This document shows, piece after piece, positions 6,996-17,883 of a stretch of DNA of 32,000 nt; positions within the stretch are counted from its first letter, which is position 1, and each line of letters opens with the position of its first letter. The notes beneath the pieces are model-generated. The model had not been told where the DNA came from. It ran no database searches and was given only the letters and a program-made list of their open reading frames with translations. The translations under genes and the position numbers were made by a program. Source of the DNA: Alteromonadaceae bacterium (lineage in GTDB: Bacteria > Pseudomonadota > Gammaproteobacteria > Enterobacterales > Alteromonadaceae); contig JABXHM010000052.1 in the NCBI GenBank assembly GCA_013373625.1, forward strand, positions 1 to 32,000, in the 5' to 3' direction.

Positions 6996-7071
6996 GCGGG
7001 AATAGCTCAGCTGGTAGAGCACAACCTTGCCAAGGTTGGGGTCGCGAGTTCGAATCTCGTTTCCCGCTCCA
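6996..7071 (+). tRNA. glyW: tRNA-Gly (anticodon GCC)
   Basis: 76-nt cloverleaf folded by hand. Acceptor GCGGGAA/TTCCCGC, anticodon loop CTTGCCAAG, T-loop GGTTCGAATCC-like (GCGAGTTCGAATCTCGT), encoded CCA. Confidence 0.95.
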
Positions 7072-7128
7072 ATTTTTCGAATGGTTTGCGTTTGCTTTAA
7101 GACGGCCTACGTCACAACGCAACTTTAA

Positions 7129-7202
7129 GGCGGAATGGCAGAATGGCTATGCAGCGGATTGCAAATCCGTGGATCTCGGTTCGACTCCGGGTTCCGCCTC
7201 CA
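7129..7202 (+). tRNA. cysT: tRNA-Cys (anticodon GCA)
   Basis: 74 nt. Acceptor GGCGGAA/TTCCGCC, anticodon arm GCGGATTGCAAATCCGT identical to E. coli tRNA-Cys, T-loop TTCGACT, encoded CCA. Confidence 0.95.
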
Positions 7203-7277
7203 TTACTTTGTAAGTATTAGTTTTTAAGTAAATTCAGGGCAACCAAGCCCGCACCAGCACATCACGTGCAACCCTAA

Positions 7278-7364
7278 GCCCGGGTGGTGAAATTGGTAGA
7301 CACAAGGGATTTAAAATCCCTCGCTGGTAACAGCGTGCCGGTTCAAGTCCGGCCCCGGGCACCA
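7278..7364 (+). tRNA. leuZ: tRNA-Leu (anticodon TAA), long variable arm
   Basis: 87 nt. Acceptor GCCCGGG/CCCGGGC, anticodon arm AGGGATTTAAAATCCCT, variable arm CGCTGGTAACAGCG, T-arm CCGGTTCAAGTCCGG, encoded CCA. Near-identical in layout to E. coli leuZ. Confidence 0.95.
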
Positions 7365-8135: not shown

Positions 8136-8867
8136 ATGAAGAATTTAAAAAACATAAACCTCATGGATAGAGTGGAATTGAAAATAAATGGGTTTATAAA
8201 GAAAAGGCTTCATGAGACATCAAAGCAAGTTAAATGGGTTTCTTACCACATACCAAAAACAGCAGGAACTTCGTTTAGATTAAGTTTAGAAAGCGCTTAT
8301 GGTGCAAGAAGAGTCTTTGGAGTGTATGCCGATTCAGGGGCAAAGGAGATGTCCCGAGCTGAGCAAATATGGTTACCTAGAAGCGCGACTGTATTGCATG
8401 GCCATTTTAAAGCATTGCCAAAACACGGAGTGCTTTTCCCCAATGCAAAGCGCCTTGTCTGGCTAAGAGATCCAATTCAAAGGTCTTGGTCTTTACTTAA
8501 TCATACTCTGGACATTAGTAACAACGATAATGTTTACGGTTTTATAAAGAACAAGTTTATCGACAAAGGCATTTCTGACAGAGAAGAAATATTTTTGTCA
8601 CTCTTATCAGACAAAGAAAGTAAAAAGTTTTTTCATGCATATAGCCTTTTCTTTAAGACGGTTGGTAAGGATTTTTTTCACTTTGTCGGGAATTCAAATG
8701 ATTATGATGATGAATTGAAGCGCTTATCAAATCTGATGGGAATCAGGTTAACCCAAAACTATTTAAATGAAAGCAAAGTTAAGCGAAAAGCGCCAGAGGT
8801 GCCGAGAGCATTGCACAAGTACTTTGATGATGAGTACAAGGTCTATAACTTATTTTGCAAAAACTAA
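8136..8867 (+). CDS. PAPS-dependent sulfotransferase family protein (Sulfotransfer_2/3-like)
   Basis: 243 aa. 5'-PSB loop HIPKTAGTS (nt 8247-8273) and a 3'-PB-like motif LRDPIQRSWS. Good SD (AAGGA) upstream of the ATG. AT-rich codon usage. Confidence 0.75.
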   Translation: MKNLKNINLMDRVELKINGFIKKRLHETSKQVKWVSYHIPKTAGTSFRLSLESAYGARRVFGVYADSGAKEMSRAEQIWLPRSATVLHGHFKALPKHGVLFPNAKRLVWLRDPIQRSWSLLNHTLDISNNDNVYGFIKNKFIDKGISDREEIFLSLLSDKESKKFFHAYSLFFKTVGKDFFHFVGNSNDYDDELKRLSNLMGIRLTQNYLNESKVKRKAPEVPRALHKYFDDEYKVYNLFCKN

Positions 8868-9227: not shown

Positions 9228-10073
9228 ATGAATTTACAACGATTATTGCATTACATTCAAAACAATCATGATCAGGTTATCACGCTTGATGAACTGGCTG
9301 TTTTGAGTGGCTATAGCCCTTATCATTTTCAGCGATTATTTAAAGCTGAGTATGGTATCGGTCCTGGCAGGTTAGGAGCGCTATTGCGACTTCATCGGGG
9401 ATATTACCTTCTCAGATACCGGCCCTGGCTTAGCGTTTTAGAGGTTGCGATTGAATGTGGTTACAGCAGTAGTGATGGCTTTAGCCGGGCGTTTAAACGC
9501 ATAGCGGGTTGTACGCCGTCTAACGTGCGTCAACAGGGCGAAGCGATACCAGAACCTTTATCTAAGCTTTTAAATAAATATATCAAGGAAACCACTATGA
9601 CTGATACGCCTTCGGTGGAAACGGTAAACCTTACTGAAATTAAAGTATGTGTCTTGCGCCATAAAGGTAATCCACGGGCTTTACCAGGCACGCTCCAAGA
9701 ATTTATTAGCTGGCGTCGCGAAAATCGGTTGCCGCCCGGTAAGTTTCGGACCTTTAATTTTCTTTGGCACGATCCTGCTAGTGTTAGTCCATCAGAGTAT
9801 ATTTTCGACCTTGCATGTGAGATACCGGCGCGCGAACTCACTAATACTGCTGACAAACAATTTGTCAGTATTCCTCAGGGACGCTACGCCAGGGTTGTTG
9901 TAAAAGGGACCGATAGCCTGATTGAATCATCGATTGATTACCTGCTGAATAACTATCTTGTTGAAAATAATGAACAAGCTGGTGATTTTCCTTTAATTAT
10001 CGAACGCATAAAATTTTATCCGGAAGTTCCTCACCACCAAGCAGAGTGCAATGTTTTTCTACTATTAAAGTAA
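9228..10073 (+). CDS. AraC-family transcriptional regulator with a C-terminal GyrI-like effector-binding domain (Rob/SoxS-like architecture)
   Basis: 281 aa. N-terminal double HTH (ITLDELAVLSGYSPYHFQRLFK, IECGYSSSDGFSRAFKR). The C-terminal ~150 aa have the GyrI-like small-molecule-binding pattern (VETVNL..IKVCVLRHKG, GRYARVVVKG). Confidence 0.85.
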   Translation: MNLQRLLHYIQNNHDQVITLDELAVLSGYSPYHFQRLFKAEYGIGPGRLGALLRLHRGYYLLRYRPWLSVLEVAIECGYSSSDGFSRAFKRIAGCTPSNVRQQGEAIPEPLSKLLNKYIKETTMTDTPSVETVNLTEIKVCVLRHKGNPRALPGTLQEFISWRRENRLPPGKFRTFNFLWHDPASVSPSEYIFDLACEIPARELTNTADKQFVSIPQGRYARVVVKGTDSLIESSIDYLLNNYLVENNEQAGDFPLIIERIKFYPEVPHHQAECNVFLLLK

Positions 10074-10470: not shown

Positions 10471-11769
10471 ATGACAAAAGTTTATGTGGGAATTAGTGCT
10501 GACATGATGCATCCAGGTCATGTCAATGTTATTCGTGAAGCTGCCAAGCTCGGAGACGTTCTGATTGGTCTTCTTACCGACCGCGCGATTGCGTCGTACA
10601 AACGCCTTCCTTTTTTAGATTACGAACAACGCAAGGCGGTCATTGAAAATATGAAGGGTGTGACTGAAGTTATTCCTCAGGAAACCCTCGACTATCGCCC
10701 TAACCTGAAGAAACTTAAGCCAGATATCGTTGTTCATGGTGACGACTGGAAAACCGGAGTACAGGCAAAGGTGCGCCAGCAAGTTATTGATACGCTTGCT
10801 GAGTGGGGAGGTAAGCTTGTAGAAGTGCCATATACACCTGGCATTTCATCTACCCTCCTGAATAAAGCTGCCAAAAGCCAGGGGACAACCCCTGATCGCC
10901 GTCGAAAACAGTTGCATAGGTTGTTGCAGGCTAAAGATCTTGTACGTGTTATCGAAACGCACAGCGGTATATCGAGTTTAATTGCGGAAAACCTCGAAGT
11001 TGAGGTGAACAACCAAAAGCGTTCATTCGATGCGGTTTGGTCTTCGTCACTGACAGACTCAACGAATAAAGGTAAGCCGGATATAGAGGCGGTAGACACC
11101 ACTGACAGAGCAAATACGATTTCGTCTATCTTTGAGGTGACTACCAAACCAATGATTTATGATGGCGATACTGGTGGTAAACCAGAGCATTTTGCTTTTA
11201 CCGTACGTACCCTTGAGCGTCTTGGTGTTTCTGCAATAGTCATTGAAGATAAAACCGGGCTCAAAAAGAACTCGTTACTTGGCAACGATGTAGCGCAAAC
11301 ACAAGATTCAATATTAGAATTCAGTGAAAAAATTGCTACCGGGAAGAAAGCGCAGGTAAGCCAGGACTTTATGATTTTTGCGCGTTGTGAAAGTCTGATC
11401 CTTGATAAAGGAATGGATGATGCAATTGAGCGGTGTAAGGCTTATCTGGAAGCGGGTGCGGATGGCATTATGATCCACTCCAGAAAGTCTGATGGCGCGG
11501 AAATCCTGGAATTCTGTGAAATTTATAAGACGTTTGGCGCTGGCAAACCACTCATCGTGGTGCCGTCTTCATTTGATCGAATTACTGAAACTGAGTTTGC
11601 AAAGGCCGGCGTTAATATTGTTATTTACGCTAACCACATGTTGCGCGCAGCGTATCCTGCCATGTATGAAACAGCCAAGAAAATTCTGGTAAACGAACGT
11701 GCGTTCGAAGTTCGGGATGACTGTATGTCGATAAAAGAAATTCTCGAAGTAATACCGGGAACTGCCTGA
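10471..11769 (+). CDS. pepM: Bifunctional cytidylyltransferase / phosphoenolpyruvate phosphomutase (Fom1/AepX-type fusion)
   Basis: 432 aa. N-terminal ~135 aa: CTP-transferase fold with HPGH (nt 10510-10521) and the GISST (RTxGISTT-like) motif. C-terminal ~285 aa: isocitrate-lyase superfamily fold with the PEP-mutase-diagnostic EDK-X5-NS motif ([11 protein letters not shown], nt 11245-11274). Strong SD (AAGGAG). Confidence 0.92.
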
Positions 11770-12893
11770 TGTTAAAGCCGGAAAACTATCTGAACGACCT
11801 TACTAATGCCGGTATAGAATTTTTTGCAGGTGTGCCTGATTCTTTATTAAAGCAGATTTGTGCCTGCATCACCGATAAATTGCCCGCTAATAACCATATC
11901 ATTACTGCGAATGAAGGGGCTGCCATTGGACTCGCCATTGGCCATCATATTGCTACCAATGGTGTGCCGCTGGTCTATATGCAAAATTCGGGGTTGGGGA
12001 ATATTGTTAATCCAGTTATGTCGTTAGCTTCTCCTGAAGTCTATGGTGTGCCTATGGTTATGCTTATTGGCTGGCGTGGACAGCCGGGCATAAAAGACGA
12101 ACCACAACACGTGCACCAGGGACGAGTAACGGAGGCGATGCTTGCGTCTATGGAAGTGCCAGTGTGGGTGTTGTCTAAAGATCCCGATACTGCTCGTAAC
12201 CAGACAAATGAGGCTGTGGCTACAGCCCGTCGTCTTAACGCTCCGGTAGCCATCCTGGTTGAAAAGGGGACCTTTGATAGTTACAGCATGAGCAATGAAA
12301 AGCCGGCGCTCACGCTCAAACGCGAAGACGCTATCATTGCAGCGGCAGCTCAGGTTGAAGACAATGGTGTCATAGTTTGTACCACCGGGATGCCATCACG
12401 TGAATTGTTTGAGTATCGGGCCCGTGAGGCGGCTGGACACCAGCGTGATTTTCTAACAGTGGGAGGAATGGGCCATGCCAGTCAAATTGCACTCGGGATT
12501 GCCCTGAAACAGCCATCCCGTCCTGTTTACTGTTTTGATGGGGATGGTGCAGCCCTGATGCACATGGGTTCATTAGCTGTTTCTGGACAAAGCGGTTGCA
12601 GTAATTTTGTCCATATCGTGCTTAATAATGGTGCTCACGAAAGTGTCGGAGGGCAGCCTACAGTTGCTTTTAAAATTGACCTGCCTGCCATTGCTAAAGC
12701 GTGTGGTTATGTCAGTGCTGTTAGCGTTGACTCAATAGAATCACTGGAGCAGGCGATGGTAGAGGCGAAAGAGGCAGCAGGGCCGTCTTTTGTAGAAGTT
12801 AGGGTATTACCCGGACACCGCAGCGATATAGGGCGTCCTACCACTACGCCTGCCGAAAATAAAAAGGCGCTCATGAAGCATCTTCAAGCCTAA
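11769..12893 (+). CDS. ppd: Phosphonopyruvate decarboxylase (TPP-dependent)
   Basis: 374 aa. GVPDSLLK, ANEGAAIG, MQNSGLGN and GWRGQPGIKDEPQH are typical of Ppd/AepY/Fom2. TPP-binding motif GDGAALMHMG...NNGAHES. The start overlaps the pepM stop by 1 nt (TGATG). Confidence 0.9.
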   Translation: MLKPENYLNDLTNAGIEFFAGVPDSLLKQICACITDKLPANNHIITANEGAAIGLAIGHHIATNGVPLVYMQNSGLGNIVNPVMSLASPEVYGVPMVMLIGWRGQPGIKDEPQHVHQGRVTEAMLASMEVPVWVLSKDPDTARNQTNEAVATARRLNAPVAILVEKGTFDSYSMSNEKPALTLKREDAIIAAAAQVEDNGVIVCTTGMPSRELFEYRAREAAGHQRDFLTVGGMGHASQIALGIALKQPSRPVYCFDGDGAALMHMGSLAVSGQSGCSNFVHIVLNNGAHESVGGQPTVAFKIDLPAIAKACGYVSAVSVDSIESLEQAMVEAKEAAGPSFVEVRVLPGHRSDIGRPTTTPAENKKALMKHLQA

Positions 12894-12909
12894 GTAAACG
12901 GAACATAAA

Positions 12910-14052
12910 ATGAGTGTCAAATACACCGAAGGGCTCGGTAGTCTGGCAAAACTACCAGGTATTATTAAAAAGTACGGCGCCAGAAAAACACTGCTGGTCA
13001 CGGGGCGTCATTCTTACCAGGCCTGCGGTGCCGCAGCAATTGTTGACCCATTGGTCGACGAGCTGAACATCGTGCAATTCTCGGACTTTTCGGTCAATCC
13101 CAAGTTTGAAGAAGCAATGCGCGCAACGCATTTGGCTCAGACAGAAAGCGTTGATTTAATTGTCGCGATTGGTGGCGGTTCGGTGATGGACATGGCAAAG
13201 CTTGTTAAAGCATTTTTAACTGCGCCTGAACACGCTGAGGAGCTGACCAGGGGGGCAAGAACAATGTCTGGTGCCGGGTTGCCACTCATTACGGTTCCAA
13301 CAACGGCTGGTTCCGGGTCCGAAGCTACACATTTTGCTGTTGTCTATATTGGTCATGATAAATTTTCTCTGGCCTCTAAATACTTACTTCCGGAAAACGT
13401 TATCCTTGATGGTCGGCTACTCTCCTCTGCCAGCCCTTACCAACGGGCTTGCAATGGTCTCGATGCATTGGCGCAAGCTATTGAAAGCGCCTGGGCTGCA
13501 GGTTCAACAGAGGAAAGTCGTCATTATTCCTTTTCGGCTATCGAAAAAGTAATCAATCAGCTAAAGCCAATCGTCGACGGTACAGCCAGTGAGTTGGACT
13601 TTCAGGACATGCTTGTCGCGGCAAATTTAGCGGGGCGCGCTATCAATATTGCTAAAACGACTTCTGCACATGCGTGGTCGTATGGGATTACTGGTCATTA
13701 CGGCCTGCCACATGGCCATGCTGTCTGGATGACATTGCCAGCTATTTTTGGTCTTCATGTGAAGGCTGCCCGGGAGAATGAAAACATCACCGACCCCAGG
13801 GGAAGTCAGCATTTTAAACTCATTATGTATCGTATTATGGAATTATTAGGCATCAAAGATGAAAGCGCTGCGGAAGAGTCGCTGCGTAACTACCTCCACA
13901 GTATTGCGGTTGACACTATGCTTGAAGATATTGGAGCCGAAACCGTTGAACAGCGCAGCTTTTTGTCTAAACAAGTCAATATGCAGCGCATGTCCAACAA
14001 TCCGGTTGGGCTTTATCAAGCTCAGATCGATCACATTTTTCGTTTAACTTAA
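12910..14052 (+). CDS. Iron-containing (group III) alcohol dehydrogenase, predicted phosphonoacetaldehyde reductase (FomC/PhpC-like)
   Basis: 380 aa. Fe-ADH signatures GGGSVMDMAK and the His cluster HAWSYGITGHYGLPHGHAV. The functional call rests on its position directly after pepM-ppd, the same context as FomC/PhpC/DhpG. Confidence 0.7.
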   Translation: MSVKYTEGLGSLAKLPGIIKKYGARKTLLVTGRHSYQACGAAAIVDPLVDELNIVQFSDFSVNPKFEEAMRATHLAQTESVDLIVAIGGGSVMDMAKLVKAFLTAPEHAEELTRGARTMSGAGLPLITVPTTAGSGSEATHFAVVYIGHDKFSLASKYLLPENVILDGRLLSSASPYQRACNGLDALAQAIESAWAAGSTEESRHYSFSAIEKVINQLKPIVDGTASELDFQDMLVAANLAGRAINIAKTTSAHAWSYGITGHYGLPHGHAVWMTLPAIFGLHVKAARENENITDPRGSQHFKLIMYRIMELLGIKDESAAEESLRNYLHSIAVDTMLEDIGAETVEQRSFLSKQVNMQRMSNNPVGLYQAQIDHIFRLT

Positions 14053-14074
14053 AGTTAGTATTGCTTTGTTCAGG

Positions 14075-15892
14075 CTAATCTTTTAGTGGCCAGGGCCATT
14101 CGTAAAACCGATCTGAGATTCCCCAGCCAGTACCGTATAATTCCAGTAAAAACTGTTCGGGATTGGCGGGAACCGGAACTTTATGGTCATAGAGCGCTAT
14201 ATTCTCTCTGCCTTCAAAAAACTGTTTGTCGATGCCTTTTATCTTCATTTTTTGCATATGCAAATGGACTTGATTGTTATTAAACCAATAGGGAAAGACA
14301 TCGATCATAATATTCGACGCAATATCGTATACATGTACATTAAAAGTATGGCTTTGACCGTATTTAATTCTGTATTTCTTATCGTCGAGCTTTGAAATCA
14401 TTTCCTGGCGAAGGGCCATTACGTCGCTTGTGTCGATTTCTTTATCTGTTAACTCAATAAGAATATCAACATCATCATCATGTTCTATAAACCCATCGTC
14501 TCTGCATGCTCCAAGCAGGGTTCCGTAGCCAAGGCAAGGTTTATAACCCAGCTCGGTAAGTTCAGCCATCAGGGAGGTTAAAACATTCATAACCTTGGGT
14601 ACATTATTGGTCAGTACGCCTTTTATAGCCATGGCATGTTTTGTAATCTGAACCAGTGGTAGCTGTTGCTTGCCACGTAATCTATTCAGAAAACCCTCGA
14701 ACAATAAGACTGATTTTTTACTCGGCAATAGCGCTGAGTATGCGGTAAGACTGTAACTCAATGAGTTCTTTGTTTCTGCGACTACTATGACAGCTAGTAA
14801 CTTTAGCTCTTCCTCAAGTGGTTCGGCCTGCAGTTGAGTAATCTGCCAAGTAGATATTAGCTGTTTTAAAAAATACAGATCTGCATATTCAACAGTATCT
14901 AGTCCGTCGTAATATTTTGATATCAGTTTATTCAGCAAGGCTATTCGCATGTCAGCAGCGTTATTCGCTGTTTTACTGATAACTGCATCACCTAAATGTC
15001 TTACTATCTGATACTTGAGATATTTGCGATTAATTGTGTCGTTGAGTGCACTGTATATTAACTCTGATGACTGATCATTGGTTTGTGCATACACCGTTAG
15101 GTGTTTTGCTCTTAAGCCATACTTATCCATACGGTTTTGTATGACTAACCAAGAAACGTAAACCTCATCCTTAAACGTAATGTCAAACCAAGGGTTGGAC
15201 TCTCGGGCTGAGTGAAATCCTTTGTCGATTAATACTCGACTCAGGTCTTTATCTTGCTTTACATTTGAACTGGCGGTGACTTGTACATTACCGTCAGGCG
15301 TATAAAGTTCTCCGTTTTCATTGTAAATCTTAATACCTGCAACATTTAAATAAGCTTGGTCGTTATTTATAGCAACCCGAATTGAGCGAACTTTTTTATG
15401 TATTGAAACATTTAGTGGGGTATGCTTGCCGCCACCAAAAAAGCCCAGAGAAGGAAAAATTTGGGTGAAATTTGCGTGCTCCAGTTTTTGTGTTGTAGTG
15501 AGTCTGGCTAACAGCGATGAACACAATACGGAGCCAAGCTCAGTCACTGATTTGTTGTACAAGGTTACGAACAAAAAATGGCTTTTGTGCCGTTCAATGA
15601 CTGACCTGTCAACACAGAGGTTAAATGTATACTGGTGTAGTTTACCGTTGCACTCGTCATTACTTGCATCTGATACTTCCATGGCGAGGAGTTGGCTGCC
15701 AATTGTCGCGACGATTACCGTTGGTTGATCCGGTCGAAGGCTACAGACGCCTGAAAGTAGCAACTTATCGTTACTCTCCTCGACGTCGAGCAAAATAGCG
15801 GTTTGTTGAGCGGCGGCTGTATTAAGAATAGGCAAGCGAGAGGTTAAAAATATTGAGTGTGTCTTTTGGTTTTCACCGGGTATAGCTGACAT
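14075..15892 (-). CDS. LicD-family phospho(no)transferase with a ~430-aa N-terminal extension that includes a discoidin/galactose-binding-like module
   Basis: 605 aa. C-terminal LicD domain (about nt 14093-14590): GYGTLLGACRDDGFIEHDDDVDI, with DDDVD at nt 14465-14479, and LYGTGWG near the end. A middle segment (about nt 15053-15400) shows a pattern like F5/8-type-C or fucolectin folds (ASSN...HSARESNPWFDITF...VIQNRMD...RAKHLTVY). There is no signal peptide or TM. It converges on the ADH gene with 22 nt between the stop codons. Confidence 0.8.
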   Translation of the reverse strand: MSAIPGENQKTHSIFLTSRLPILNTAAAQQTAILLDVEESNDKLLLSGVCSLRPDQPTVIVATIGSQLLAMEVSDASNDECNGKLHQYTFNLCVDRSVIERHKSHFLFVTLYNKSVTELGSVLCSSLLARLTTTQKLEHANFTQIFPSLGFFGGGKHTPLNVSIHKKVRSIRVAINNDQAYLNVAGIKIYNENGELYTPDGNVQVTASSNVKQDKDLSRVLIDKGFHSARESNPWFDITFKDEVYVSWLVIQNRMDKYGLRAKHLTVYAQTNDQSSELIYSALNDTINRKYLKYQIVRHLGDAVISKTANNAADMRIALLNKLISKYYDGLDTVEYADLYFLKQLISTWQITQLQAEPLEEELKLLAVIVVAETKNSLSYSLTAYSALLPSKKSVLLFEGFLNRLRGKQQLPLVQITKHAMAIKGVLTNNVPKVMNVLTSLMAELTELGYKPCLGYGTLLGACRDDGFIEHDDDVDILIELTDKEIDTSDVMALRQEMISKLDDKKYRIKYGQSHTFNVHVYDIASNIMIDVFPYWFNNNQVHLHMQKMKIKGIDKQFFEGRENIALYDHKVPVPANPEQFLLELYGTGWGISDRFYEWPWPLKD

Positions 15893-16331
15893 CAGTTAAC
15901 AAGTTCCTTGTCCAACCCGTTAATAAACTTCAAAATCCAGTATAATCATAGATTTACATGATCTAACGAGTCGTTTGTGATTGTTTGTAATAAAAAATAC
16001 ACAATACCGTTATTTATATTAGAAATCTATTATCACGTAAAAGATCGCCACCGACTCCTGCGAAATGGTAATCAATAAAGACTGGTTGTTTCTTTATTAA
16101 AAAAAACACTGGTTTACAAACCTGAGTGCTACGCAAGATCCCATTCATAATGCTGTGTTGATGAAGTAATTGACAGAACCCAGTATTCAACGCTTTTTGC
16201 TAAATTTCGCGCCTCTGATTTTTATGGCATAATTAAAATCTGTTCAAGTTTTCGTATATTTCTGCAGCCGTTTTCTTAGGGCGCACTTAATACAGTGTGA
16301 ATTTATTTTGTTAAATGAAGAGGGTATAGCT

Positions 16332-17168
16332 GTGTCGCGACTCATTTCGGTAAACGATATCAAACCTGATGACTTATCTTCATATGTTGTGTTGTTTGCG
16401 TCGATGACCAACCCGGTGACGGGAAAAGCTGATGATCCCAATGAGGGTTTTTTGCCCGGTGCAATTAAATTTGATTTGGATGGCGAGGGTAGCGATCACA
16501 GTTCTGCTTTGCCACATACATTGCCAGCGCCCGAATCATTAGCAGTTCTGCTAGGTCAGTTGGGTGTTTCAAACCACAGCAATATAATTGTCTATGACAA
16601 CTTGGGAATGTTTAGTGCCCCTCGTCTATGGTGGATGCTCAAAAGTCTGGGCCATAAAAATGTGGCAGTGCTAAATGGCGGTTTACCCGCATGGAAAGTC
16701 GCAGGCTACCCGGTAACATCGACGTTATCATCCCGCCCACCGGTTAGTTACCAGCCTGTTGTCACCACAGGTTGGTTTTGTAACAGCGACGCCGTATTAA
16801 AAGCTATTGAAGTCGCTACGCCACTTATTTTAGATGCGCGTAGTGCAGGGCGCTTCAATGGCATTGCGCCTGAACCCAGAGAAGGGTTACGCAGTGGTCA
16901 TATGCCGGGGGCCTTCAATGTGCCCTTTAATGACTTGCTTGACGTTGGTCTGGCACTTAAACCTGTTAGCACTTTAAAACAGTTTTTTAAGGAGCAAGGG
17001 ATCGACATAAGCCAACCATTGTTATGCTCTTGTGGCTCTGGTGTAACAGCTTGTATTGTGGGGCTTGCCGCATTAGAAGCGGGCGCGAAAAGTGTAACTG
17101 TATATGATGGCTCTTGGTCAGAATGGGGCGGTGAGCACGCGTTTCCGGTGGAGACATGCAATGCATGA
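16332..17168 (+). CDS. sseA: 3-mercaptopyruvate sulfurtransferase (tandem rhodanese)
   Basis: Collinear with E. coli SseA (LPGAIKFDL, SDHSSALPHTLP, FSAPRLWWML, RSGHMPGA, active-site CGSGVTA, YDGSWSEWG). The ORF-track start is TTG at 16308 with no SD. GTG at 16332 follows AGAGGG and matches the E. coli N-terminus better, but the start remains uncertain. Confidence 0.88.
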   Translation: MSRLISVNDIKPDDLSSYVVLFASMTNPVTGKADDPNEGFLPGAIKFDLDGEGSDHSSALPHTLPAPESLAVLLGQLGVSNHSNIIVYDNLGMFSAPRLWWMLKSLGHKNVAVLNGGLPAWKVAGYPVTSTLSSRPPVSYQPVVTTGWFCNSDAVLKAIEVATPLILDARSAGRFNGIAPEPREGLRSGHMPGAFNVPFNDLLDVGLALKPVSTLKQFFKEQGIDISQPLLCSCGSGVTACIVGLAALEAGAKSVTVYDGSWSEWGGEHAFPVETCNA

Positions 17169-17883
17169 TGTGTATAAACCGCGCGTTGTCGTGCTCACGG
17201 GGGCCGGCGTATCGGCTGAGTCTGGAATAAAAACCTTTCGTGACAATAATGGTTTATGGGAAAACCACCGTATTGAGGATGTCGCAACGCCTGAGGGCTT
17301 TGCTGCGAATCCCGATTTGGTTTATCAGTTTTACAATGATCGACGTGCACAATTGCAGGCACCGGATGTTACGCCCAATCAGGCGCATAAAGCGCTGGCT
17401 GAACTGGAGTCTGCGCTTGGTGAACAATTTTTACTGGTCACACAGAATGTTGATGATCTGCATGAACGTGCCGGAAGTGAGCGGGTGCTGCATATGCACG
17501 GTAAACTGCTGTCGGCACGCTGTTGCAACACGGGTAAAACGACGCAATGGTTAGACAGTTTCGATGCTCACACTGAATGCCGCTGCTGTTTTCCTGGCGC
17601 TCAGGTGCGCCCGGATATCGTCTGGTTTGGTGAAGTTCCCATGCATATGGACGAGATTATTCTAGCGCTGGCCAAAGCTGATGTGTTTATTGCAGTGGGT
17701 ACGTCAGGTCAGGTATATCCTGCAGCAAATTTCGTGGCAATGGCTGCAGACAGTGGTGCCAGAACCATCGAAATAAACCTTGAACCGAGCCAACAAAACA
17801 GTCTGTTTGACGAAAAAATTGTTGGTAAAGCAGGTAAGGTCTTACCTGAATTTGTTACCCACTTTATACGCGATTATTGCTAA
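17161..17883 (+). CDS. cobB: NAD-dependent protein deacylase (sirtuin CobB, short form)
   Basis: GAGVSAESGIKTFR, QNVDDLHERAG, HG, Zn-ribbon cysteines (CC...C.CC), VWFGE, GTSGQVYPAA. ATG at 17161 (MHDVYKPRVVVLTGAG) overlaps the sseA stop by 8 nt (ATGCATGA). The ORF-track start at 17104 would add 19 non-conserved residues inside sseA. Confidence 0.9.
   Translation: MHDVYKPRVVVLTGAGVSAESGIKTFRDNNGLWENHRIEDVATPEGFAANPDLVYQFYNDRRAQLQAPDVTPNQAHKALAELESALGEQFLLVTQNVDDLHERAGSERVLHMHGKLLSARCCNTGKTTQWLDSFDAHTECRCCFPGAQVRPDIVWFGEVPMHMDEIILALAKADVFIAVGTSGQVYPAANFVAMAADSGARTIEINLEPSQQNSLFDEKIVGKAGKVLPEFVTHFIRDYC

Follow-up and report, generated by a model that had tools for sequence, protein, structure and literature searches.

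Among the closest described relatives of the locus reported here are Fom1, Fom2, and FomC of fosfomycin biosynthesis in Streptomyces wedmorensis. These comprise a bifunctional cytidylyltransferase (CyTase)–phosphoenolpyruvate (PEP) mutase and the steps of phosphonopyruvate decarboxylase (Ppd) and an iron-dependent alcohol dehydrogenase (Fe-ADH). In the account given in PMC6697681, which cites Cho et al. (2017), the CyTase domain of Fom1 is described as moving the cytidylyl group from cytidine triphosphate (CTP) to 2-hydroxyethylphosphonate (HEP). The same set of activities, with the cytidine monophosphate (CMP) conjugate CMP-HEP as the product, is predicted for a three-gene cassette in chromosomal DNA of an Alteromonadaceae metagenome-assembled genome (MAG). 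The stretch analyzed, hereafter the window, is 32 kb of an 84-kb contig, and the cassette is adjacent to a gene of the LicD phosphotransferase family. On the way to fosfomycin, CMP-HEP is formed only transiently, as an intermediate; in the window system it would be the final donor. Among the window open reading frames (ORFs) we did not find Fom3 (the B12-dependent radical S-adenosylmethionine (SAM) methyltransferase), the epoxidase Fom4/HppE, or FomD of the fosfomycin cluster, and cassettes of the window type keep company with polysaccharide genes and phosphotransferases, not with antibiotic tailoring genes.

The second relevant system is the Pnt pathway, where PntC enzymes activate 2-aminoethylphosphonate (AEP) with CMP and LicD-like transferases are present in the same neighborhoods (PMC6697681). 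It shares the logic of Lic-phosphocholine decoration, i.e., a phosphonate is made, activated with CMP, and transferred to a surface glycan. The characterized PntCs belong to PF12804, are specific for AEP, and are found in clusters with an AEP transaminase, whereas the window contains a CyTase of the PF01467/Fom1 type, and a Fe-ADH replaces the transaminase. The head group in the window would be HEP, which is uncharged. About 60% of PEP mutases (Ppm) are fused to nucleotidyltransferase domains, and PF01467–Ppm fusions constitute 23.6% of Ppm proteins (Rice et al., 2019; PMC6697681). The branch with a PhpC-like ADH acting after Ppd, that is, the HEP branch, constitutes 8.5% of 434 ppm neighborhoods (Li and Horsman, 2022; PMC8942020).

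Polymer-bound HEP is also known. According to a passage of PMC8942020 that cites Yu et al. (2014), HEP occurs as an ester on exopolysaccharide made by Stackebrandtia and Glycomyces; methylphosphonate (MPn) is reported from Nitrosopumilus (PMC8942020). The described HEP-phosphonoglycans come from actinomycetes, whereas the window comes from a marine member of the Alteromonadaceae and offers a specific candidate transferase. In dissolved organic matter of high molecular weight (HMW DOM), polysaccharide esters of HEP and MPn account for up to 20% of phosphorus (PMC9381506), and natural HEP has been argued to be mainly polymer-bound (the 2026 PhpC paper, PMC13576164). Phosphonates feed the aerobic formation of methane and ethylene (PMC9381506, PMC13576164).

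The four genes are located at positions 10471–15892 of the window. The ORFs 10471–11769 (+, 432 aa), 11769–12893 (+, 374 aa), 12910–14052 (+, 380 aa), and 14075–15892 (−, 605 aa) occupy exactly the span given in a preliminary description of this DNA, and the families that it assigned to them were confirmed by Pfam and NCBIfam matches, homologues, and fold. The same description called the first three genes translationally linked. This is literally so only for the PEP mutase (PepM) and Ppd genes, whose stop and start codons overlap by 1 nt (the junction reads cTGATGtt); the Ppd and ADH genes are 16 nt apart. The ADH and LicD genes are convergent, and the reported 22 nt between their stop codons was confirmed.

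We propose that the cassette makes CMP-HEP and that the LicD protein transfers its head group to a surface polysaccharide, and we assign to this chain as a whole a probability of about 0.55. The PEP mutase would convert PEP to phosphonopyruvate, and Ppd would decarboxylate the latter to phosphonoacetaldehyde (PnAA), pulling the unfavorable mutase equilibrium forward. The Fe/Zn-ADH would then reduce PnAA to HEP, which the Fom1-type CyTase domain would join with CTP to form CMP-HEP. Finally, with CMP-HEP as its donor, LicD would pass the hydroxyethylphosphonyl group on to a sugar hydroxyl in the polysaccharide, releasing CMP and leaving a phosphonate monoester, while the acceptor itself would be built by genes located elsewhere in the genome. 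All substrates and products in this scheme are inferred; the protein families, the fold, the conservation of the cassette, and the neighborhood statistics were observed directly.

The first gene encodes the CyTase–PEP mutase fusion. Its CyTase domain (residues 1–135; 10471..10875, +) matches PF01467 at residues 9–130, and its PEP mutase domain (10891..11769, +) matches PF13714 at residues 149–406. The latter scores 407.7 bits with TIGR02320, against a cutoff of 319.55, thus passing the equivalog model, and matches the Protein Data Bank (PDB) entry 1M1B with E 5.5e-41. The translation contains the HPGH, GISST, and EDK-X5-NS motifs that had been noted earlier, the last being the catalytic motif that separates Ppm from the rest of the isocitrate-lyase superfamily (PMC6697681). 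In a comparison with all PDB sequences, the best match of the fusion protein was 5X3D, the isolated N-terminal CyTase domain of Fom1 (E 9.8e-60), with 89 of 132 residues (67%) identical. This identity is the strongest single piece of evidence for CMP-HEP over CMP-AEP. With the TagD model TIGR01518 the CyTase domain scores only 61 bits. The domain is hence predicted to turn HEP and CTP into CMP-HEP, and in the Joint Genome Institute (JGI) annotation several close homologues are already named [quoted passage not shown] The second gene (11769..12893, +) passes the equivalog model for Ppd (TIGR03297, 486.6 bits; cutoff 312.5). Taken by itself, the conclusion that CMP-HEP is the product of the cassette appears very likely to us.

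The third gene (12910..14052, +) encodes a group III (Fe/Zn) ADH, as follows from matches to PF00465 (132.2 bits) and PF25137 (73.3 bits). No structure of PhpC is present in the PDB, and the matches of the window ADH there are to generic group III enzymes only. The 2026 PhpC study predicts that HEP is surrounded by a Lys157/Arg349 clamp, Thr256, and the strictly conserved Tyr264, and lists the metal ligands Asp191, His195, His260, and His274, the second of which is replaced by Gln in sulfoacetaldehyde reductase (PMC13576164). The window ADH has K151, D185, Q189, T250, H254, Y258, and H268 at a constant offset of −6 from the PhpC residues, as well as R360; the basis of the equivalence is the numbering offset, as opposed to an alignment that includes the P. 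fungorum protein. None of the eight residues varies in 58 cassette-linked ADHs. Judged by this offset, the residues corresponding to the predicted HEP clamp and metal site are retained, a pattern that supports the predicted PhpC/FomC-type role of the enzyme as a PnAA reductase.

The cassette is widespread. The protein database contains at least 8000 homologues of the first gene at E < 1e-30; the best 120 of them are 76–83% identical to it and originate mostly from marine metagenomes, Rhodobacteraceae MAGs included. A scan of one genome per species yielded 583 relatives, and the three-gene cassette is present in at least 583 genomes from many phyla. Locus counts given below refer to the best 80 of these 583 relatives (63–81% identical). 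They span Bacteroidota, Campylobacterota, Desulfobacterota, Alpha- and Gammaproteobacteria, Pelagibacteraceae, Ignavibacteria, a bacterium of the candidate phyla radiation, and a Woesearchaeon. All three genes are present in 71 of the 80 loci, and the order PepM–Ppd–ADH is observed in 66; the nine incomplete loci are mostly truncated contigs. The identity of the window proteins to those of the closest cassettes is 82–83% for PepM, 63–73% for Ppd, and 57–60% for ADH.

For the 80 loci, ORFs lying no more than 7 kb from the cassette were clustered, the large clusters were annotated, and hidden Markov models were built from them. A gene resembling phosphotransferases that use cytidine diphosphate (CDP)- or CMP-activated donors was found within 7 kb in 54 of the 66 loci with at least 4 kb of flanking sequence. 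TagF-like genes (PF04464), typically starting 0–40 bp from the ADH gene, were observed in 39 loci, followed by a fusion of about 1000 aa between YidC and an LtaS/EptA-like sulfatase (17 loci), LicD (14 loci), and CDP-alcohol phosphatidyltransferases (6 loci). Other common neighbors include glycosyltransferases of families GT2 and GT4, dTDP-rhamnose genes, nucleotide-sugar dehydratases, DegT sugar aminotransferases, and Wzx flippases. Such an arrangement, with an ADH and a phosphotransferase in polysaccharide loci and essentially without an AEP transaminase, is what had been expected for relatives of this pepM gene. As a general reading across cassettes, the role of CMP-HEP as a glycan-decorating donor is well supported. 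The two cassettes closest to that of the window (L088 and L089; 82–83% PepM identity) are each flanked by two or three divergent LicD-like genes, and in one of the two cassettes a LicD-like gene converges on the ADH gene as in the window; these proteins belong to a different LicD subfamily and are approximately 22–28% identical in the catalytic domain.

The fourth gene (14075..15892, −) encodes a LicD/FKRP-fold phosphotransferase of 605 aa, as confirmed by its homologues, motifs, and a structural match to FKRP. Approximately 30 full-length homologues (30–49% identity) are annotated as members of the LicD family, and most of them carry PF04991 in precomputed annotation; all originate either in genomes of the Alteromonadaceae type (Alteromonas, Paraglaciecola, Brumicola) or in marine metagenomes. 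The motifs YGTLLGACR (YGTLLGA.R), HDDDVD, and DVFPYW are intact and align with those of the LicD family. A sequence search against the PDB gave nothing at E up to 1. An AlphaFold2 model based on 28 sequences (predicted local distance difference test 86.2, predicted template-modeling score 0.82) was compared with the PDB by Foldseek, and the top 13 matches were all FKRP (E 1e-6 to 3e-5, about 170 residues, root-mean-square deviation 3.4–3.9 Å). FKRP and fukutin, the CDP-ribitol:ribitol-5-phosphate transferases, share with the window protein the fold of the catalytic domain, a DxD-type metal site, and, presumably, the chemistry of a CDP-alcohol donor that releases CMP. On the other hand, their sequences are only 17–20% identical to it, their N-terminal domains differ, and the window protein is a bacterial, cytoplasmic one. 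Neither its sequence nor its model shows an apparent membrane segment.

The modeled LicD protein consists of β-sandwich domains at residues ~33–123 and 160–281, one of them discoidin-like, a helical domain at 286–408, and a C-terminal α/β domain, and Pfam detects a faint F5/8-type-C (discoidin-type) signal at residues 204–282. The N-terminal β-sandwich domains probably bind carbohydrate. The NCBI annotation of the MAG places the start of the protein (P0001, 535 aa) ~70 codons downstream of the point where the longest ORF begins. Since the model has ordered β-strands from residue 33 onward, the longer version may be the correct one.

The link between this LicD protein and CMP-HEP is plausible and is the weakest step of the proposed chain. 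It is inferred from adjacency alone, and it is the weakest step because the two transcription units lie on opposite strands and because the family is otherwise linked to TagD. The main alternative is that the cassette does make CMP-HEP but the LicD protein is unrelated to it, being a glycerophosphotransferase that uses CDP-glycerol supplied by a TagD-like enzyme encoded elsewhere, while CMP-HEP is used by some other transferase encoded outside the window (TagF-like, CDP-alcohol phosphatidyltransferase, or LtaS-like). We consider this alternative unlikely. In all eight homologue contexts that were read, LicD genes of this family are located in exopolysaccharide loci with RgpF, GT2, GT4, and pyruvyl- and sulfotransferase genes, and in places with ABC/Poly_export or YjbH/GfcC genes. 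In seven of the eight loci, a gene for a stand-alone PF01467 protein of 151 aa immediately adjoins LicD, and in the eighth a 132-aa version is situated 4 kb away. None of the eight loci contains pepM, and in none of these contexts does a family member of 600 aa lie beside a pepM cassette. A metagenome scan for LicD returned mostly distant LicDs, of which only two (L141, L169) were next to a cassette.

The small PF01467 partners score 127–160 bits over the full length of TIGR01518, just below the cutoff of 165.4, and are TagD-like, i.e., similar to glycerol-3-phosphate cytidylyltransferase. The possibility that the window CyTase was derived from such a partner was rejected, as the two are of different subtypes (61 vs. 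127–160 bits with this model). The resulting TagD + LicD module of Alteromonadaceae exopolysaccharide loci, a putative glycerophosphate-decorating unit which emerged from the present analysis, is the closest relative of the window LicD: the two share the full-length domain architecture, the catalytic motifs, and the identity level given above. In the module, however, LicD follows RgpF and precedes the 151-aa TagD-like gene in a locus rich in glycosyltransferases, whereas the window LicD has neither neighbor and lies outside the usual locus of its family, beside a CMP-HEP cassette. That TagF-like genes, and not LicD, are the commonest neighbors of the cassette (39 vs. 14 loci), and that the GC content of the LicD gene differs from that of the cassette, also speaks for an unrelated LicD.

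Three observations point in the opposite direction, toward LicD acting with the cassette. Firstly, neither a TagD-like gene nor another candidate transferase was found in the 32-kb window. Secondly, the two closest cassettes are flanked by LicD-like genes, as described above. Thirdly, the window protein differs from its 27 homologues at seven positions that are at least 85% conserved among them, and one of these, position 585, directly precedes the conserved YG. It is Arg in all 27 homologues and Leu in the window LicD, and in the cassette-linked LicD-like proteins it is most commonly Leu or else another uncharged residue, e.g., Ser, Thr, or Asn, Arg being found in one of 25. The R585L substitution thus loses a residue invariant in the TagD-paired family and gains one that is usual in cassette-linked LicDs. 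As a correlation between sequences, it is suggestive of a change of donor.

Several further points weigh against the combined action of the cassette and LicD. Since the partners of this LicD family are TagD-like, its usual donor is probably CDP-glycerol, and a tagD-like gene may possibly be present elsewhere in the genome. Lying on the strand opposite to the cassette, LicD is not co-transcribed with it, and the adjacency of the two could have arisen incidentally, from the mosaic make-up of a variable region. No genes for an acceptor glycan were found in the window, and genes for MpnS, HEPD, or an AEP transaminase could lie in other parts of the genome. Two of the family assignments also score low. 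The best NCBIfam model for the ADH is TIGR03405 (phosphonate-associated Fe-ADH), whose cutoff of 423.7 is far above the 169.7 bits obtained; high divergence has been reported for enzymes of the PhpC type (PMC13576164). Of the domains named in the preliminary description, PF01467, PF13714, and PF00465 were recovered, while the LicD protein scores 21.9 bits with PF04991, just below the gathering score of 22.6, so that its assignment comes from homologues, motifs, and fold. The earlier proposal of HEP-CMP as the donor and LicD as the transferase is well supported in its enzymology, i.e., the Fom1-type CyTase and the conserved ADH, while its LicD part depends on the adjacency of genes in a family that is paired with TagD elsewhere.

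The next alternative assumes that HEP is only an intermediate and that an enzyme encoded outside the window, such as methylphosphonate synthase, HEPD, or a hydroxylase, converts it to MPn or another derivative. HEP is a known precursor of MPn in marine microbes, formed through the same PepM–Ppd–Pdh steps (PMC8931226), and MPn and HEP are both found as polysaccharide esters in marine HMW DOM (PMC9381506). In addition, MpnS and HEPD have no Pfam model that would reveal them in the related loci. In the window, Pfam scans took in all other ORFs of at least 120 aa, and each of them has an assignment other than a HEP-converting enzyme; no unassigned ORF has a size fitting MpnS, as judged without an MpnS model or seed sequence. 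Moreover, most of the 80 loci have a complete, compact cassette, and no conserved extra ORF of unknown family accompanies it, the largest unexplained clusters of neighbors covering at most four loci. We regard this alternative as improbable.

Still less probable is AEP as the final phosphonate, with a transaminase encoded elsewhere making AEP, the CyTase domain producing CMP-AEP, and the ADH playing a side role. AEP is the commonest surface phosphonate, and PF01467–PepM fusions do occur in clusters with AEP transaminase (AEPT) (PMC8942020, PMC6697681). At the same time, the CyTase domain is close to the HEP-specific domain of Fom1, as shown by the 67% identity, and the ADH with its predicted HEP-binding residues is a conserved member of the cassette. 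No aminotransferase was detected by Pfam in the window, and no Aminotran_5 family stands out among the cassette neighbors. Among 117 representative unclassified neighbor ORFs of 310–520 aa compared with Pfam and NCBIfam, no class-V aminotransferase family had two or more matches, and no AEPT equivalog was present among the NCBIfam matches listed, which comprised the top 25 families, so that a single AEPT could escape. Given the Fom1-type CyTase, the conserved ADH, and no AEPT family standing out, the AEP reading was rejected. The start of a small-molecule antibiotic pathway of the fosfomycin or phosphinothricin type, although identical to fosfomycin biosynthesis in its early steps (PMC6697681), is very improbable and was likewise rejected, as the relatives of the cassette are located in polysaccharide loci and no radical-SAM methyltransferase, epoxidase, HEPD, nonribosomal peptide synthetase, ATP-grasp, or export gene was found among the window ORFs.

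The preliminary description had stated that the window lacks an AEP transaminase, radical-SAM enzymes, and other tailoring genes, and that no glycosyltransferases are adjacent. The Pfam scans agree with both statements, having detected no aminotransferase, radical-SAM, cupin-type, or other tailoring enzyme, and no glycosyltransferase in the whole 32 kb. In contrast, the novelty of surface decoration with phosphonates by LicD was overstated. Tailoring through cytidylyl activation, the HEP branch, and HEP-containing exopolysaccharide have been published (PMC6697681, PMC8942020), and a matching JGI annotation exists. The concept is thus already in the literature in the form of the Pnt logic, the inventory of HEP branches, and HEP-glycans in actinomycetes and marine DOM, and the locus is a direct extension of it. 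What may be new is the explicit proposal of a donor, the spectrum of transferases around the cassette, and the re-partnered LicD. In our literature search, "CMP-HEP" or "HEP-CMP" was met only in the context of fosfomycin and in one mention in Rice et al., and no paper linking TagF-type transferases to phosphonate cassettes was found.

The locus and the survey together provide a concrete candidate for the attachment of HEP to glycans, namely, a compact CMP-HEP cassette with a named transferase, in a lineage that has cultivable relatives. The occurrence of one LicD family with either TagD or a phosphonate cassette constitutes a natural comparison for donor specificity. Should the link between LicD and the cassette fail, the locus would be a routine instance of a very common phosphonate cassette. 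A broader scenario, which we put forward tentatively and which is possible but doubtful, has two parts: that a LicD protein from a TagD-partnered family, which would normally place glycerol phosphate from CDP-glycerol on Alteromonadaceae exopolysaccharide, was re-partnered with a horizontally acquired CMP-HEP cassette and switched its donor, the loss of Arg585 marking the switch; and that the cassette, situated beside TagF-, LicD-, CDP-alcohol-, or LtaS-type transferases and found across hundreds of genomes and some viral contigs, is the genetic source of HEP esters on marine HMW polysaccharides.

Several cassette contexts observed in the survey differ from that of the window. The fusion protein of about 1000 aa has an unusual architecture, combining a YidC/60KD_IMP membrane-insertase domain with a sulfatase (LtaS/EptA-like) domain. 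In 17 loci, most of them from Bacteroidota (e.g., L009, L011, L014, L016, L024, L025, L029, and L036, in the last at L036:14862-17870), its gene comes after the TagF-like gene, ~1.2–1.3 kb downstream of the cassette, and the protein might work on the outer side of the membrane. Small genes for CDP-alcohol phosphatidyltransferases are found directly beside the cassette at L008:8739-9632, L040:12380-13177, and L088:7842-8666, which are the closest loci from Alphaproteobacteria and Pelagibacteraceae; HEP-phosphonolipids may be made there, besides or instead of phosphonoglycans. A variant cassette (L012, L015, L023, L026, L033, and L056, from Campylobacterota and Desulfuromusa, as well as viral loci) has a PepM approximately 66% identical to that of the window, and its second and third genes reach only 60–170 and 50–110 bits against the window Ppd and ADH, respectively; its downstream enzymes may be different ones, as may perhaps its product. 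Finally, 30 viral contigs from IMG/VR (L172–L201; mean GC 0.34, some longer than 100 kb) encode a Fom1-type CyTase, which in 24 of them is fused to PepM and is 50–66% identical to the window domains. After the fusion gene there are usually Ppd-like and ADH-like genes of very high divergence, and some form of the cassette may be present in phages or giant viruses.

In the window itself, the gene order is uvrC, pgsA, a tRNA cluster, a 243-aa ORF, an AraC/GyrI-like regulator, the cassette, LicD, sseA, cobB, and a LysE-family gene. According to the Pfam scans, more genes follow, with cbb3 oxidase genes last; uvrC and pgsA were also assigned by Pfam. The LicD protein is identical to HWE26_14010 and the product of the 243-aa ORF to HWE26_13985, and the only contig carrying the exact LicD protein is an 84-kb Logan assembly. 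The tRNA cluster (tRNA-Gly, tRNA-Cys, and tRNA-Leu; 6996..7364, +; ARAGORN), which follows uvrC–pgsA, is the left border of a variable region that holds the cassette and LicD. GC content is uneven across this region, with values of 0.366, 0.429, 0.451–0.493, and 0.408 in its segments as compared with 0.450 for the whole window, and this unevenness suggests a mosaic origin. Att-like direct repeats flanking the variable region were looked for and none were found. A scan for promoters and terminators was uninformative, promoter-like sites being fewer than in shuffled sequences.

The AraC-type regulator has a GyrI-like ligand-binding domain (9228..10073, +; PF12833, PF00165, PF06445) and ends 397 bp upstream of the cassette, from which it is separated by a long, AT-rich intergenic region; it may control the cassette. 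The 243-aa ORF (8136..8867, +) has the lowest GC content of the region, 0.366, and no Pfam match. Its homologues from Idiomarina, Psychrosphaera, Alteromonas, and Shewanella (37–52% identity) are named sulfotransferase family 2, and some of them carry PF03567, so that this ORF may be a second gene for glycan decoration within that variable region; the context of the Idiomarina homologue was viewed and was uninformative. Downstream of LicD, the longest ORFs of the rhodanese (sseA-like, 16308–17168, +) and Sir2 (cobB-like, 17104–17883, +) genes overlap by 65 nt. The true starts of both genes are probably located downstream of these, since the gene calls of the source contig are shorter, 278 and 240 aa, respectively.

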